Positions 3,753 through 34,631 of a DNA stretch of 64,000 bases are shown one piece after another (position 1 is the stretch's first letter; every line of letters starts with the position of its first letter). The DNA is from a virus, in IMG/VR virus record IMGVR_UViG_3300029319_000004, positions 1-64,000 of that record. One strand, given 5' to 3'. The notes below the pieces were generated by a model that worked only from the letters and a program-made list of their open reading frames with translations, did no database searches and had not been told where the DNA came from. Both the position numbers and the translations under genes were made by a program.

Positions 3753-5365
3753 TGAAAACAAAAGTACTTTTTGAAAACTGGCGCCACCATTTAAAAGAAG
3801 CTAAATCTGATCGCGAGATTTTAGATGCCGCGGCCAAAGCTTTGGATGTGTCGACCAAAGAATTAATCAGCATGGGTCCGCTTGAGGCAGAATTTGTAGC
3901 TGATTTTCTAGAAAAAAAAGGGCTTGATGACGCGATAAAGATACTTCGACGTCGATCCGAGGTGTGGGCTAGCGTCGACGCAGCTGAAGACGAAGCTTCT
4001 CGCGAGCGTCTTGCTCTTCGACAAAGAAGAGCAGATGCGCAAAAAGCCGGCCGATCGGAACCCCAAGACGGTGTAAGAGATCCGCTTAACCCTCTTGGGA
4101 CAGCGCCCATGGGTAGCGGTGAAGATCAATCCTTAGCAGATTATAAGGCCGGCCGCGTACAAAGAGCTATAGATAAGAAGAAAGCTAAGGAGCTTGCTGC
4201 AAAAAAAAGAAAAGCATTTTTGAGAGGCGCTCGGTCTAAAGCCTTTTTAGACCTCAAAAAATCGAAAGGACCTGCAACCTCTGCCCAGCCGGCTTCGAGG
4301 CCGCGGGTGCGGCCGTTGGAGGAAGAATCTTATCGCATGGTAAAAGATCCGATTAGCGGCAAGCGCAGAATGATGCGAAGCGATGAGCTTGGCGATGCCA
4401 TGGCGCAGGTTGATGATGAGCTGCCTTTGACAGCTGCTTTCCCTTGGATGCAAAGCGTTATCGACGATCTTAAAGACGACGAGTTTCCTGATAAGGAAAA
4501 AGCTATACAAGCTTTAGCAAAACAATTAGGCATGTCTATCAAAACTATGCCTTCTGACATGGATGAGGAACCAACAATGAGCGAAGTAAAGACAATATCG
4601 AAAAAGAAATTCGAAACAACTCTAGAGAACCTTGTGTTTGAAGAACTAGCTAGAGTTTTTATGGAACAAGAAAATCAACCTTCGGAAAAAGAATTGAAAG
4701 AAATTGCTGCGCGAATAATGAATTCCGTTAATAAAATTTTAAAATCAAAGAAAATATACACTCGGACCGGGCCAAGTGTCGGCAATTTTGAATATGACTA
4801 TGCTTTGGGAATAATGGGGGTGAAGCTTGGTAAAACAGTTTTAGAATTATCAAAAGTAGCCGGCTACAAGCTTGCGAGCCTTGAAAGTTTTGTTGCAAAA
4901 ATGCTCGCGAATATTCCTTCGAACCAGCTTAAAAAGTCTTCGGCCGTTGGTGGTAGCACTCCTTTTATGTTTGTTCCTTACAACGTATGGAAGCAACAAC
5001 AAATAGCAGCGCATAAATCGCTTATGAATCAACTTTCGAAAAAAAGAGCTGAAAAGAAAAAGAAGAGCAAAGGTAAGGACTCTCAAGGGGTTACAAGGAA
5101 AGATGTACTTAATTACCTAGACAGCGTTTTTCCTAATTTATCCAAAGATCAAAAAAGTCGACTTCTAGCTTTTGATGGATCCATAAGAAGAGTTGATGGT
5201 AAGAGTATTTTTACCCCTTCGGATAAAATGAAAAAAATGTTTCCTAACGCTAAGCCAGTTCAAGTCTCTGGGCCACGGATAAACGACGCAGATACATTAG
5301 CTATTTTAAAAGCCGCAGGTAAGCCAACAATGCCCACAACGCGTCGGACCGCCGGAGCGGATTAA
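3752..5365 (+). CDS. leader-bearing putative internal head protein
   Basis: MKTKVLFENWRHHLKE leader; several internal L-x-E junctions. Confidence 0.55.
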   Translation: MKTKVLFENWRHHLKEAKSDREILDAAAKALDVSTKELISMGPLEAEFVADFLEKKGLDDAIKILRRRSEVWASVDAAEDEASRERLALRQRRADAQKAGRSEPQDGVRDPLNPLGTAPMGSGEDQSLADYKAGRVQRAIDKKKAKELAAKKRKAFLRGARSKAFLDLKKSKGPATSAQPASRPRVRPLEEESYRMVKDPISGKRRMMRSDELGDAMAQVDDELPLTAAFPWMQSVIDDLKDDEFPDKEKAIQALAKQLGMSIKTMPSDMDEEPTMSEVKTISKKKFETTLENLVFEELARVFMEQENQPSEKELKEIAARIMNSVNKILKSKKIYTRTGPSVGNFEYDYALGIMGVKLGKTVLELSKVAGYKLASLESFVAKMLANIPSNQLKKSSAVGGSTPFMFVPYNVWKQQQIAAHKSLMNQLSKKRAEKKKKSKGKDSQGVTRKDVLNYLDSVFPNLSKDQKSRLLAFDGSIRRVDGKSIFTPSDKMKKMFPNAKPVQVSGPRINDADTLAILKAAGKPTMPTTRRTAGAD

Positions 5366-30596: not shown

Positions 30597-30785
30597 ATGT
30601 GCATTATATGCGTTGATTTAGCTAAAGACAAACTTACTCCCCTAGAGGCTAGAAATAACCTAGGGGAGATGAGAAATTCAATTGAAAAAGATCATAGACT
30701 CGAAGTCTTAAAATTAATATGGAAAAAAGAAGAAGAACAAGAATATTATAATGAATGGAACGATAATAGTGACGCTTCTGATTAA
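30597..30785 (+). CDS. small CxxC protein
   Basis: MCIICVDL; ATG 30597 chosen. Confidence 0.55.
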   Translation: MCIICVDLAKDKLTPLEARNNLGEMRNSIEKDHRLEVLKLIWKKEEEQEYYNEWNDNSDASD

Positions 30786-30844
30786 ATAAAATTTTTTTCT
30801 TTAACATATTTAAATTTTATAGGATAATATACATAAATCTTTAT

Positions 30845-31193
30845 GGGGGTGAACTGGTTTCGACTGAGTATTGAAAATATAATGTGCAAGGCTGTGTGAG
30901 TGCGCACAGTAAAAACACTCAACTTTATAAACGCCAACGATAACGTTAGTTTTGATTACGCCCTAGCGGCTTAATCATGGGGAATGATAACGCCTTATTA
31001 ACCAAAGATAGTCCCGCCGACGGTGCCCTTCGGGGAGAGGTGGTCAAGTGGTTTTTCCAAGTTAGGCCCATAGGACAAACTTGGTGGTGCGCGGTGCTTG
31101 AGTTTGTCAGAGTCCAAATAACTGACTAACCTTGTGAATGACATTGTGTTAGATATATTTAGGACCCGGGTTCGACTCCCGGCACCTCCACCA
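30845..31193 (+). ncRNA. ssrA: tmRNA
   Basis: 5' GGGGGTG pairs with 3' CACCTCC-A-CCA; 5' GGTTTCGAC; T-arm CCGGG-TTCGACT-CCCGG; tag ANDNVSFDYALAA* at 30933-30974. Confidence 0.95.
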
Positions 31194-31226
31194 TATAAGT
31201 CATTTTAATTAAAAGGAGATAAAAAA

Positions 31227-31409
31227 ATGATGGATCAAAATCAAGCTTTAAATACTTTAGTTCAAGCAGTTAATTTAGCTCAGCAAAGAGGAGCTTACAA
31301 CCTTAAGGAAGCAGCAGTACTTTCTAGTGCTATTGAAGTCTTTACTCCTCCTGCAGAGGAAGCAAGTGAGACTGTTACTGAAGAGACTACTGTAGAAGAA
31401 ACTGAATAA
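31227..31409 (+). CDS. small hypothetical protein
   Basis: AAGGAG RBS. Confidence 0.6.
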   Translation: MMDQNQALNTLVQAVNLAQQRGAYNLKEAAVLSSAIEVFTPPAEEASETVTEETTVEETE

Positions 31410-31479
31410 ATTATTTAACTATTATTAATATATTATTATATAATTAATTAATTGCAGTCCTCTACCTAAGGAGAAGATA

Positions 31480-31641
31480 ATGTCTATGAAAGAAAATGAG
31501 CAAAAAATTAGTGATCTTAGAAGCAGTCTTAGTCGTCTCAAAGATGATATGGCTGAGGTAAGGTCAGAGCTAGCTAATTTTAAAAAGGCTGTGGCAGCAG
31601 ATATGACTCGTCTAGTAAAACTTCAACAACAGCAGAAGTGA
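31480..31641 (+). CDS. 53-aa coiled-coil protein (not in ORF track)
   Basis: MSMKENEQKISDLRSSLSRLKDDMAEVRSELANFKKAV...; AAGGAG RBS. Confidence 0.55.
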   Translation: MSMKENEQKISDLRSSLSRLKDDMAEVRSELANFKKAVAADMTRLVKLQQQQK

Positions 31642-31645
31642 TACT

Positions 31646-31942
31646 ATGACCGAAGTTATAAAAAGTGGAAAACCGTGGAAGAATGATTCTTTTCACAATA
31701 CGTTTGAAGAAGCTAATAATGTTAGAGAGAAATTACTAGCAATCTGGAACGACAGTGATTCTCACAAAGGAATGCAGGTCAAAGTTAAACGCATGCCTTC
31801 CAGAGATCAATTTGTTGTTAAAGTTCGGCTTCATCCAGACTTTGAACCAACTAAGGAAAAGCCTAAGAAAAATGGGAAAAATCGCAAACGAAATAAGAAA
31901 GATACAGGTGGAGGAAAATTTGACTCTTCCGCAAGTGTTTGA
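31646..31942 (+). CDS. hypothetical protein
   Basis: Follows the previous ORF by 4 nt. Confidence 0.55.
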   Translation: MTEVIKSGKPWKNDSFHNTFEEANNVREKLLAIWNDSDSHKGMQVKVKRMPSRDQFVVKVRLHPDFEPTKEKPKKNGKNRKRNKKDTGGGKFDSSASV

Positions 31943-32042
31943 AAAGTATCCACATTTGTCCCGTCTCCAGTATGAAGAGCTTCGTGAGGAGGGTCAGCTT
32001 AATGAGGACTCCTCCAAAGCGAAGCAGCTTCTTTTAGATTGA
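31872..32042 (+). CDS. small hypothetical protein
   Basis: MGKIANEIRKIQVEENLTLPQVFEKYPHL; overlaps the tail of the upstream gene. Confidence 0.45.
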   Translation: MGKIANEIRKIQVEENLTLPQVFEKYPHLSRLQYEELREEGQLNEDSSKAKQLLLD

Positions 32043-32081
32043 TTTACTCAGACGCTTGGGGTGCCTACTATACTAGTGTAT

Positions 32082-32161
32082 GGGACAGTATCTCCTCGCT
32101 CTTATAAAGCGTAGAAAGAGTAGTCGGTTACACGTGGGTTCAAACCCCACCTGTCCCACCA
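32082..32161 (+). tRNA. atypical D-armless tRNA-like RNA, anticodon UAU (Ile?)
   Basis: Acceptor GGGACAG/CTGTCCC-A-CCA; T-arm GTGGG-TTCAAAC-CCCAC; arm (T)CGCT-CTTATAA-AGCG(T); only 7 nt between acceptor and anticodon stems; 21-nt extra region. Confidence 0.7.
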
Positions 32162-32177
32162 TTAATGGAGGACGATA

Positions 32178-32387
32178 ATGAAAAGAAGCTTAACAATGTT
32201 TATTATTGCTGGAATATTTTTTGCTGGCTGTGCTGGTACGCAACCTAACGTTGCAACTGTCACTATCAATGTACATACCCAGCCCAGTATTCACTCTTTC
32301 TACACTTACGAAAGACGATGCAAAAAAAGAAACCCGCAAATTTATCAAAAAGTATGCAAGACAGTTTTAATCAAACATAAATCATGA
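32178..32387 (+). CDS. small lipoprotein
   Basis: Lipobox FAG-C; GGAGG RBS. Confidence 0.6.
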   Translation: MKRSLTMFIIAGIFFAGCAGTQPNVATVTINVHTQPSIHSFYTYERRCKKRNPQIYQKVCKTVLIKHKS

Positions 32388-32602
32388 GTGGCGTTAACAG
32401 ATATTTAGAAGAGTACGAAAAGTACAAACATGTTCAGCTTGAAATTGATATTGTTTACAATAAAAAATCACGCACTTCTGAGCGTATGGTTATCTTAGAG
32501 ATAAACAATGACGAGGACAAAGCGCAAGTAAAGAACCTTCGTACAGAAAATATTCAATATAAAACGCTACATTGGTGTAGGAAAAACCTAATTAAAGAGT
32601 GA
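32384..32602 (+). CDS. small SH3-like hypothetical protein
   Basis: ATGA overlap with the upstream stop. Confidence 0.5.
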   Translation: MSGVNRYLEEYEKYKHVQLEIDIVYNKKSRTSERMVILEINNDEDKAQVKNLRTENIQYKTLHWCRKNLIKE

Positions 32603-32603
32603 T

Positions 32604-32747
32604 ATGAAATACATTGTAAAATTTATGTCACGAGAAAAAGAAAAAGATATATTTACAATCAACCCGCCTATGTCGATCGACAGAGCACAAAAAATTTCAA
32701 GAGATTTACAGTTAATGGGAATGACAGCGTGGATTGAAAAGATTTAA
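32604..32747 (+). CDS. 47-aa hypothetical protein (not in ORF track)
   Basis: MKYIVKFMSREKEKDIFTINPPMSIDRAQKISRDLQLMGMTAWIEKI; starts 1 nt after the upstream stop. Confidence 0.45.
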   Translation: MKYIVKFMSREKEKDIFTINPPMSIDRAQKISRDLQLMGMTAWIEKI

Positions 32748-32817
32748 CGAACTTTAGAGACAAACAAACTATATATTAGAGAAAGCTTTATAAGCTATAT
32801 TAAGGAGAACAAAACAA

Positions 32818-33288
32818 ATGGCAGATCGCAAAATTGAAAAAGCCCCTTTTAACGCGGTGAGAACATCAGTACTAGCAGTTTCCTCTGCAACGTCCCTAGG
32901 AGATTCAGACTGCGGACGTCTAATCGCAGTTACCGCTGGTAATTACAATATTAATCTACCAGCAGCAAAAGCAGGCAGAACTGTAAAGTTTTTAATTGCT
33001 GCATCAAGCACTGACAACATGACAATTAAAGTTATTGGAGATGACCACCTAATGGGTCGAGTAGCCGTAACAAGCACCACTGCAGACAACACTGGCATAC
33101 CGCAGGTTGTGGACGATATTTCTGGCGAGCTGGTTGAGTTAAACATCGATTCTAACGTGGCCACCACCGGTGGCCTCACTGGAGATGTTATTGATCTTTA
33201 CTGCGCAGTGGATGGAACTTGGATTGTTAATGCACACTTGCTAACTACCAACGGAAATCCTGGCACTATTGCCACAATGACCACTTAA
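32818..33288 (+). CDS. beta-rich putative structural/decoration protein
   Basis: Thr/Gly/Ala-rich; INLPAA...GRTVKF and GDVIDLYC..DGTWIV fibre-like motifs; AAGGAG RBS. Confidence 0.45.
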   Translation: MADRKIEKAPFNAVRTSVLAVSSATSLGDSDCGRLIAVTAGNYNINLPAAKAGRTVKFLIAASSTDNMTIKVIGDDHLMGRVAVTSTTADNTGIPQVVDDISGELVELNIDSNVATTGGLTGDVIDLYCAVDGTWIVNAHLLTTNGNPGTIATMTT

Positions 33289-33364: not shown

Positions 33365-34000
33365 ATGAATGAACGATGGAGTCTGTGGCAAAGAAACGTA
33401 ATTGATCGTTTTAAAAACATGCCAGACGAAGAAATCAAAAAAGAGCTACAACGCACTGCACATCCTGTTGCTGTATGTATGGAACAATGGCAAGGCGACT
33501 TTAATATCAGCACGCTAATCCGAAACGCCAATGCCTTTAACGTTGAAAAAGTGTTTTACTTTGGCAGAAGACGATACGATCGTCGAGGTACAGTCGGTAC
33601 TCACAACTATACAGATATTCAGTTTCTTGATGGTGGATACGACCAGTTAGAGACACTAAAAAATCAATATACATTTGTAGGCGTCGATAACAACGTATCT
33701 CAGAAAACCTTTAAATTAGGCGAGTTTGATTGGAATACACTATCAAAACCACCGTTGATGATCTTCGGTGAGGAAGGCACTGGATTGACACAACAAGCTA
33801 TTCAAATGTGTCATATTCTATTAGAAATTCCTCAATATGGGTCTGTTCGCAGTCTGAATGTTGGCACAAGTTCTGGAATACTCTTATATGACTACGTGAA
33901 CTATCTAAAAAATTCCACAAATCAACATATGTTGCGGACAATGAAATATGATGAAACCTGTAGTGGACAGAATGAATCATGCCAACTAACTCTCCTTTAG
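33365..34000 (+). CDS. SpoU/TrmH-family RNA 2'-O-methyltransferase
   Basis: NISTLIRNANAF (motif 1), IFGEEGTGL (motif 2), IPQYGSVRSLNVGTSSGILLY (motif 3). Confidence 0.9.
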   Translation: MNERWSLWQRNVIDRFKNMPDEEIKKELQRTAHPVAVCMEQWQGDFNISTLIRNANAFNVEKVFYFGRRRYDRRGTVGTHNYTDIQFLDGGYDQLETLKNQYTFVGVDNNVSQKTFKLGEFDWNTLSKPPLMIFGEEGTGLTQQAIQMCHILLEIPQYGSVRSLNVGTSSGILLYDYVNYLKNSTNQHMLRTMKYDETCSGQNESCQLTLL

Positions 34001-34595
34001 AGTTTAATATTGGTGATCCCGACGCACCTCCTACTGTCGGTATGCTATAATGTGCATGCCCTTGGGTGTTTCCAAAAAAATGTCCCGTAAATAAAGGAAC
34101 CATGTTTCCATCTGAAATACCCATTGGGCTAGCTATATTATATACTTTTTCTCCATATTCTGGTCTTTTTGTCGACATAGGGATATGAGGAAGATCTAAA
34201 TTCTTTGACTTAAGAAGGCAAACATCAACATCTTTATTAGATTTTAATATACTAGCATGTCTGCTTTTTCCCTCTCTGTCAATAATTTTTAAAAATACAT
34301 GGCCACCTTGGCTTTTTATTCTTTTTTCGAACTCTCCTAAGTTGCAAACGTGCGCAGCAGTTAAAACAACTTTTTTATTTCCGTAAAGAACAACCGATCC
34401 AGAGCCAACTGAAAAAACTTCAGGCTCGATGCATGTTTGTTTTTCTTCATTGCACACACCAACCCAAGTTTCTACCTTAACAAAAGCTTTTCTTGCTGTT
34501 CTAATATTTGTTAGTATGGTTGTTTGACTTGCGCAACTATTTAATATGAAGCTAAGTAAAAATACTATTATTAACAGTAATAACTTGATGCGCAT
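33798..34595 (-). CDS. trypsin-like serine protease lipoprotein
   Basis: LTAAHV (His), DVCLL (Asp), GGASGSP (Ser); lipobox LNS-C after ATG 34595. Confidence 0.85.
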   Translation of the reverse strand: MRIKLLLLIIVFLLSFILNSCASQTTILTNIRTARKAFVKVETWVGVCNEEKQTCIEPEVFSVGSGSVVLYGNKKVVLTAAHVCNLGEFEKRIKSQGGHVFLKIIDREGKSRHASILKSNKDVDVCLLKSKNLDLPHIPMSTKRPEYGEKVYNIASPMGISDGNMVPLFTGHFFGNTQGHAHYSIPTVGGASGSPILNSKGELVGMIHSVHYRFHHISLSATYVDLWNFLDSSRSHIRVFQNLCQHSDCEQTHIEEFLIEYDTFE

Positions 34596-34631
34596 AACAC
34601 AAGTAACTAGTAAAAGCATAAAGAGTAAAGT

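Follow-up and report, generated by a model that had tools for sequence, protein, structure and literature searches.

An 80-nt element on the plus strand of a marine phage genome (32082-32161) is best read, with a rough probability of 0.8, as a functional elongator tRNA-Ile(UAU) whose core is permuted, and which would be transcribed from the phage genome, trimmed like any other tRNA, charged by the host isoleucyl-tRNA synthetase (IleRS) and used to read AUA codons. The phage record has 180,711 bp and direct terminal repeats, and the window, that is the whole stretch of DNA analysed here, comprises its first 64 kb. The DNA sequencing runs in which this stretch occurs are of marine origin. The processing, charging and decoding of the element, together with an L-shaped fold, are what we infer from the comparison of sequences. 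On balance, we also lean towards the wider view that the element belongs to a natural and widespread non-cloverleaf tRNA chassis of phages, in which the two strands of the D stem have changed places on either side of the anticodon arm and the D loop has come to lie beside the T arm, and which would serve at least two amino acids (Ile and Arg) through changes in the identity bases that canonical tRNAs use. Such a chassis would be the first rewired architecture to work on ordinary bacterial machinery, and it may persist by escaping a host factor that recognises the canonical core, although evasion of a host nuclease as the reason for the design is a guess.

The element and its family

The element was found in a 135-nt gap between same-strand ORFs and reads GGGACAG UAU CUC CU CGCU CUUAUAA AGCG UAGAAA GAG UAGUCGGUUACAC GUGGG UUCAAAC CCCAC CUGUCCC A CCA. 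Its acceptor stem is formed by GGGACAG (positions 1-7, 32082-32088), which pairs perfectly with 32151-32157 and shows two-sided changes in all seven pairs among 146 relatives listed; the 3' strand is followed by the discriminator A73 (32158) and an encoded CCA (32159-32161). The junction bases U8 A9 U10 (32089-32091) are the same in all relatives listed. Next come C11 U12 C13 (32092-32094), which stand in place of the 3' strand of the D stem and form the 5' strand of a helix referred to here as helix X, pairing with 32118-32120, and then C14 and U15 (32095-32096), of which U15 lies opposite U31 in what is probably a fifth, 27-43-like pair of the anticodon stem (in 24 of the 61 Arg copies, A or G stands opposite U15). 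The anticodon arm (32097-32111) begins 8 nt past the acceptor stem with a stem of four pairs (CGCU/AGCG) plus the U-U apposition, and carries the loop CUUAUAA (32101-32107) with C32, U33 and A37 in place and the anticodon UAU at 32103-32105; two-sided changes were seen in all four pairs, and 99.1% of the cells were paired. Farther on, 3' of this arm, lies AGUCGGUUA. The linker U31 A32 G33 A34 A35 A36 (32112-32117), which leads from the anticodon stem to helix X with five unpaired bases (N-GAAA), has GAAA in every copy listed, and is followed by the 3' strand of helix X, G37 A38 G39 (32118-32120), which pairs with 32092-32094, takes the place of the 5' strand of the D stem and runs directly into a single-stranded look-alike of a D loop (U40 A41 G42 U C G45 G46 U47 U A C A C52, 32121-32133). 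In this segment, A41 corresponds to A14, G42 to G15, G45-G46 to G18-G19 and U47 to position 20; the GG is invariant, and G42 covaries with C52, its Levitt-type partner. The T arm (GUGGG, loop UUCAAAC, CCCAC; 32134-32150) has U54, U55, C56 and A58 in its loop and two-sided changes in four of its five pairs, the equivalent of G53-C61 being invariant in 146 of the 146 copies listed. The acceptor stem, A73, CCA, the T arm, the CUUAUAA loop and a D-loop GG sequence behind the anticodon arm had all been reported in the initial annotation, which had been made without comparison with relatives, and all of them are present in the sequence.

Compared with canonical tRNA-Ile (RF00005), the element shares the 7-bp acceptor stem, A73, the 5-bp T stem with its UUCRA loop, the 7-nt anticodon loop with U33 and a purine (A) at 37, an Ile-box anticodon, the GG, bases of the R15/Y48 type and a place in tRNA arrays. 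It differs in having no D arm at 10-25 and no variable loop between the anticodon and T arms, in the exchange of the D-stem strands across the anticodon arm, and in a D-loop sequence placed 3' of that arm. The Rfam tRNA model (RF00005) matched 32082-32158 at 34.2 bits (gathering score 29, model positions 1-71), with 4 nt aligned to the 15-position D arm and an 18-nt insert in the variable region; the canonical tRNAs of the same phage scored 57-71 bits, compared with 34 bits for the element. The fold was better than that of 198 of 200 shuffles (z = -2.8). ARAGORN with default settings made no call at the element, though it called a tmRNA and four canonical tRNAs in the same phage. In relaxed mode it reported a tRNA-Ile(tat) with wrong borders at 87 nt, and a call in mitochondrial mode, placed on the minus strand, was spurious. 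A covariance model built from the family gave the element 97.2 bits, as against at most 20.2 bits for the canonical tRNAs of the phage, which places it far beyond chance, and found a single copy in the phage genome. A scan for promoters and terminators revealed no such site directly at the element.

Relatives were first obtained by BLAST from Streptomyces phages of cluster BE (about 80% identity). In IMG/VR, 12 loci matched a strict pattern, at least 116 matched when the anticodon was left free, at least 119 when A replaced G at the G15-like base, 66 with A after the GG and 7 with C or G after the GG. The family amounts to at least 247 distinct sequences (at least six of seven acceptor pairs required), and the copy sets analysed below are arbitrary subsets of it, among the matches listed; L108, whose 3' acceptor strand has a deletion, and also L130 and L075, which are cut by the end of the locus, were left out before the first alignment. 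The search patterns themselves fixed many of the 'invariant' core bases, whose conservation is therefore in part a product of the search. This holds for the GAAA of the linker, which is also present in copies found by BLAST, and for U8 A9 U10 in most patterns; the latter were free in the 12-locus strict scan and in the BLAST matches and were still conserved there, and this very strong conservation may point to an additional partner. The GG was left free by the main patterns, yet is invariant.

When one genome per species was scanned for 185,579 prokaryotic species, only 16 matches were obtained, 15 of them on MAG contigs and the remaining one in a tRNA/tmRNA array of Achromobacter anxifer, perhaps in a prophage; the family is almost purely viral. 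The largest search of GenBank phages matched 80 records, of which 77 were from Streptomyces phages and the others were Kehishuvirus 'tikkala' (host Bacteroides cellulosilyticus), crAss-like cr130_1 and bajarodcaudo virus 1. Further deposited copies, in Rhodococcus phage Peregrin and Microbacterium phage Magritte, came from other searches. CCA is encoded in 12 of 80 distinct copies among the matches listed, so that elsewhere it must be added after transcription. In the BE-cluster phages LilMartin and Coruscant (L006:957-1478 and L007:961-1482), the element is without an encoded CCA and lies directly after a gene annotated 'nucleotidyltransferase'.

A three-way junction with a covarying tertiary pair

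The secondary structure is a three-way junction of a normal 7-bp acceptor stem, the T arm and helix X, which encloses the anticodon arm. Helix X consists of three base pairs (C11-G39, U12-A38 and C13-G37 in the window's copy), and the D-loop look-alike UAGYYGGU lies single-stranded between helix X and the T arm. In alignments of first 78 and then 146 diverse copies listed, 97.6-97.7% of the cells were paired compared with about 66% (65.8%) in shuffles, none of 500 shuffles reaching the observed value, and the covariation score was 0.81-0.83 (0.825 on 146 copies) compared with at most 0.173 for slid partners. RNAalifold, unaided, returned the same structure including helix X, and in a blind ranking by mutual information the top 17 column pairs were the 16 varying helix pairs and the tertiary pair described below. 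The middle pair of helix X was CG in 79, UA in 55, GC in 6, UG in 4 and AU in 2 of the 146 copies listed, and unpaired in none. Its outer two pairs were fixed by the search patterns; in EGole-type copies and in a second copy in L170, which were found by other means, C11-G39 is replaced by A11-U39. A pairing of G39 with C51 instead of C11 was considered as well, as both partners are invariant in the main set, but the EGole-type copies turn C11-G39 into A-U while C51 stays, which favours the 11-39 pairing. Among the Arg copies, the middle pair of helix X was paired in 61 of 61 and the cells of the anticodon stem in 244 of 244, indicating that the same fold is kept in the Arg branch.

The initial annotation had proposed a UAU tRNA without a normal D arm and with a D-loop sequence behind the anticodon arm. 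Comparative evidence upholds this core idea and corrects the topology as drawn: the GG segment had been taken for a hairpin arm and is single-stranded instead, and the enclosing 3-bp helix X had been overlooked. The hairpin in question (GUAG-UCGG-UUAC) can be drawn in the window's copy, but among 78 relatives listed none of its pairs shows a two-sided change, and at the third pair 35 of 65 cells are unpaired.

It had also been stated that homologues of a decayed pseudo-tRNA would show no covariation; covariation among the homologues is strong in all helices. A decayed tRNA pseudogene or a leftover of an integration site would agree with the rejection of the element by gene finders and with the deletion in the 3' acceptor strand of the relative L108. 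Given that every helix shows compensatory changes across hundreds of copies, that the loops are intact, and that a covariance model (from 78 copies) cleanly splits the family (72.7-98.2 bits) from canonical tRNAs (at most 28.1 bits) with nothing in between, we regard this explanation as refuted by the covariation and give it practically no weight.

In the rewired tRNA that we favour, the canonical order after U8-A9 (5' strand of the D stem, D loop, 3' strand of the D stem, anticodon arm, variable loop, T arm) would be replaced by the order C-N-C strand, anticodon arm, five-base linker N-GAAA, G-N-G strand, D-loop sequence and T arm. The 3' half of the D stem would come first and lead into the anticodon arm, and the 5' half would follow the linker and lead into the D-loop sequence; both links of the cloverleaf, from a stem strand to the anticodon arm and from a stem strand to the D loop, would be kept. 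The nick that the cloverleaf has between the variable loop and position 10 would be closed, so that helix X and the anticodon stem would form one hairpin of about the usual length of the D-stem/anticodon-stem stack. The acceptor and T arms would stack as usual, and the single-stranded D-loop look-alike would still be able to reach the T loop through a GG contact and an R15-Y48-type pair; with these elbow contacts possible, the L shape for RNase P, the CCA enzyme, synthetases, EF-Tu and the ribosome could be kept.

Evidence for such an elbow came from the segment after helix X, U-A-R-Y-Y-G-G-U, which is the D-loop consensus (A14, R15, G18, G19), and from the GG, U54, U55, C56 and A58, which are invariant or nearly so in columns left free by the main patterns. 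The G15-like base was compared with the base before the T stem, a column left free in both scans: among 180 distinct copies listed, 84 of the 89 with A had U as the partner and 71 of the 91 with G had C, and the remainder were G/G (17), A/A (3), A/C (2), G/U (2) and G/A (1). Even close relatives differ at this pair, which is G/C in the window's element and A/U in L244. On a tree built from only 76 columns, with the two tested ones set aside, supported branches offered 9 independent pairs, of which about 7.6 had changed in the same direction, none in the opposite one and 1.4 not at all (median p = 0.008). The G15-like base is without a pairing partner in 15 of the 146 copies listed. Judged by these substitutions, the tertiary pair follows the Levitt pattern (G15-C48 / A15-U48) of canonical tRNAs. 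The bases expected at the elbow are thus all there and the 15-48-like pair covaries, suggesting that the elbow of the L shape is retained.

Canonical segments that are cleanly reordered would also suit a precursor from which cutting and ligation make an ordinary cloverleaf, as happens with the permuted tRNA genes of some algae and archaea. We hold this to be very improbable, as two cuts and two ligations inside the core would be needed to restore the canonical order, and as the 5' and 3' ends already form a normal acceptor stem, which does not fit the known processing by way of a circular intermediate. Moreover, no conserved partner protein, and in particular no conserved ligase or endonuclease gene, was found in the flanks of ±2 kb (the largest cluster is present at 12 of 89 deduplicated loci), and selection acts on helix X and the tertiary pair in the encoded arrangement. 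In the circularly permuted tRNA genes of Cyanidioschyzon merolae, the break lies between the halves and the mature tRNA is canonical after processing. The element resembles these genes in that tRNA segments are reordered in the gene, but its ends are normal and its rearrangement is internal and apparently permanent.

Anticodons, identity elements and genomic context

The anticodons of the family are restricted. When the scan imposed no anticodon, the 80 distinct copies listed had UAU in 54, GAU in 22 and CAU in 4 cases and no other anticodon. The matches in prokaryotic genomes contributed two Arg copies, with CCG and CCU, both with G73. A family confined to Ile was ruled out by L146 and L153, two true Arg members, and it was through these that the Arg branch was found: when A was required after the GG and any anticodon was allowed, all 61 distinct copies obtained had Arg anticodons (UCU 35, CCU 19, ACG 4, UCG 2 and CCG 1). 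Altogether, the 247 distinct copies listed comprise 186 with Ile-box anticodons (UAU, GAU, CAU) and 61 with Arg anticodons. The base after the GG switches with the anticodon: it is U in 181, C in 5 and A in none of the 186 Ile-box copies listed and A in 61 of the 61 Arg copies, and the IMG/VR scan contained no locus with an Arg-type anticodon and any base but A after the GG. The discriminator is A73 in 178 of the 186 Ile-box copies listed and A or G73 in 53 of the 61 Arg copies. For ArgRS, A20 in the D loop is described in the available text of a published study as the chief determinant, along with C35 and A/G73 (PMC9976931). In the aligned copies, a base in the relocated D-loop segment tracks amino-acid identity as it does in the cloverleaf, and this match with the anticodon would be hard to explain unless synthetases read these RNAs.

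The window's element has the features of an Ile isoacceptor, namely the Ile-box anticodon UAU, A73 and A37. In E. coli, IleRS also uses the stem elements C4-G69 and C29-G41; these pairs are not kept in the family, where they vary freely, and given the very diverse hosts the E. coli rules may not apply. A rare tRNA-Ile(UAU) that is independent of TilS occurs in Mycoplasma mobile. A point against the tRNA-Ile(UAU) reading is that an unmodified UAU anticodon could misread AUG as well.

In line with a role in translation, the element was found in the context of tRNA arrays. Among 82 distinct copies with flanks, listed, canonical tRNAs were nearby in 59 and within 150 nt in 36, and 72 of the 72 neighbouring canonical tRNAs were on the strand of the element. 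Where a canonical tRNA-Ile was present in the same locus it had the other anticodon in 11 of 11 cases among the copies listed (element and neighbour: GAU with UAU 3, UAU with GAU 7, CAU with UAU 1). In a large tRNA array of 'tikkala', tRNA-Trp and tRNA-Met are separated by 90 nt, and the element exactly fills this gap. One crAss-like lineage has two rewired copies 253 nt apart, one with GAU and one with UAU, and some phages have only rewired copies, side by side, for both GAU and UAU.

These data also bear on the decoy that the initial annotation had offered as an alternative, and which is taken here as an RNA that is made and folded like a tRNA but stays outside translation, where it would soak up or mislead a nuclease, toxin, modification enzyme or other host factor whose target is tRNA-Ile. 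Such a role would suit junction bases that are more conserved than in ordinary tRNAs, a design confined to phages (the 16 matches among 185,579 prokaryotic species, 15 of them on MAG contigs) and an odd core that could set the element apart from host tRNA. A decoy, however, would have no need to keep A73, U33, A37 and the full T loop, to switch A20 and the discriminator along with the anticodon, or to avoid the anticodon of the neighbouring tRNA-Ile (shared in 0 of 11 cases, copies listed), and the phages with rewired copies only, for GAU and UAU, do not fit it either. As the anticodons complement the neighbouring tRNA-Ile and the identity elements switch with the anticodon, we consider a decoy unlikely and prefer a tRNA that takes part in translation.

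In the window's phage, AUA accounts for 1070 of 3274 Ile codons in long stop-free frames. The four canonical tRNAs near 164 kb of the phage record (Leu-UAA, Asn-GUU, 'Met'-CAU and Arg-UCU) serve A/U-rich codons other than AUA. The one with the anticodon CAU (G000:C1:164077-164153, beyond the window) was called Met by ARAGORN; it could be a lysidine-type tRNA-Ile and as such a second reader of AUA, in which case the element would be redundant. The premise of the initial annotation that the element is an adaptation to AT-rich genomes found no support, as a distribution of UAU over AT-rich and GAU over GC-rich phages did not hold (median flank GC 0.386 versus 0.384 for UAU and GAU copies, p = 0.78). 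When contig sets from four marine metatranscriptomes were compared with 30700-33200, the neighbouring ORFs were covered and the element was not; in three of the sets the covered stretches were parts of the upstream ORFs and tmRNA-like ends that stem from other organisms, and no contig of X18 aligned. As tRNAs are poorly captured in libraries of this kind, the gap says little.

Several other features were noted around the element. A tmRNA gene (30845-31193, plus strand; Rfam 127 bits, tag peptide ANDNVSFDYALAA) precedes the element by about 900 nt. A tmRNA (691-1148) also adjoins the rewired tRNA in the Achromobacter locus L146, and the Streptomyces phages of cluster BE have one tmRNA each according to published abstracts. 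An ORF at 32178-32387 on the plus strand starts 17 nt after the element, is preceded by GGAGGA and begins with MKRSLTMFIIAGIFFAGC, which looks like a lipoprotein signal peptide. Located 1.2 kb downstream of the element is a gene for an RNA 2'-O-methyltransferase of the SpoU family (33365-34000, plus strand; Pfam E = 1.8e-23), whose best NCBIfam match is TrmH with a score of 58.9, far below the model cut-off of 227. TrmH methylates G18 of the tRNA D loop. A SpoU/TrmH-like gene was not found beside any other copy of the element. An ORF for a trypsin-like peptidase (33798-34619, minus strand; Trypsin_2, E = 1.8e-16) converges on the methyltransferase ORF, the two overlapping at their tails by about 200 nt.

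Relation to known tRNAs and to existing annotation

The lack of a canonical D arm, with a connector in its place, is shared with the D-armless mitochondrial tRNAs such as mammalian mt-tRNA-Ser(AGY) and nematode mt-tRNA-Ser(UCU), which are described, in the text available to us, as flexible and without the rigid canonical L shape (PMC7609411). In contrast to these, the phage family keeps the GG, the T-loop bases U54, U55, C56 and A58 and a covarying Levitt-type pair, which makes it probable that a rigid elbow is kept, and it occurs in phages of bacteria, where the machinery is bacterial and not organellar. The same 2020 review of non-canonical tRNAs places D-armless tRNAs in mitochondria only, the word 'phage' having 0 occurrences in its available text (PMC7609411), and a paper of 2024 states, in the part available, that all known bacterial tRNAs are cloverleafs (PMC11551756). 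The latter describes an engineered 'mini HisT' without a D arm that was accepted by E. coli HisRS, EF-Tu and the ribosome. This indicates that a D-armless tRNA can pass through the bacterial machinery, from synthetase through EF-Tu to the ribosome, and makes a working rewired tRNA more plausible; as far as the available text goes, 'mini HisT' differs in being artificial, in resulting from a deletion and not a rearrangement, and in needing a mutation in a host RNase to accumulate (PMC11551756). Natural non-standard architectures in phage tRNA clusters are also represented by the allo-tRNAs and the 8/4 or 9/3 tRNAs; as described in the accessible part of that report, these change the lengths of the acceptor and T stems and keep the order of the four arms, whereas the rewired family keeps 7/5 and changes the order (PMC5389517). 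A search of full-text literature (open-access papers and bioRxiv, main texts) found no description of the rewired architecture.

The element also falls into a blind spot of annotation. ARAGORN missed it in 132 of 132 loci tested, the sole overlapping call being a neighbouring tRNA-Met, and the corresponding spot in GenBank was without a feature in 58 of 60 records listed (80 matched in all). In two records of Coruscant, the element lies under the start of an FtsK-like CDS. The only annotated records among those listed were those of EGole (L276:395-471; MK494112.1 and NC_055791.1), in which these 77 nt are labelled 'tRNA-Leu, codon UUA'; this label was rejected, since the loop CUGAUAA gives the anticodon GAU (Ile). 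As gene finder and records miss the element, counts of phage tRNA sets and studies of codon matching omit an Ile or Arg decoder. If the proposed function is true, a rearranged core with elbow contacts and identity rules would show what bacterial translation needs of the core of a tRNA, and the design may be useful as a compact or orthogonal tRNA scaffold. Cultured hosts exist in Streptomyces, Rhodococcus, Microbacterium and Bacteroides cellulosilyticus.

Two loci contained unusual tRNAs along with rewired copies. In Microbacterium phage Magritte, a second kind of rewired tRNA (L277:1406-1482), which is unannotated, lies directly upstream of the Ile(GAU) copy and has the same topology as the main family with another core sequence: a 4-bp enclosing helix placed directly on a 5-bp anticodon stem, the loop GUUCUAA (UCU, Arg), the linker AAA and then UAGUGGA. 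In Achromobacter anxifer LMG 26857, the array that holds the rewired Arg(CCG) copy also contains two tRNAs called by ARAGORN (L146:4363-4436 and 4792-4865) with a 2-base and a 4-base 'anticodon', which points to anticodon loops of unusual size.
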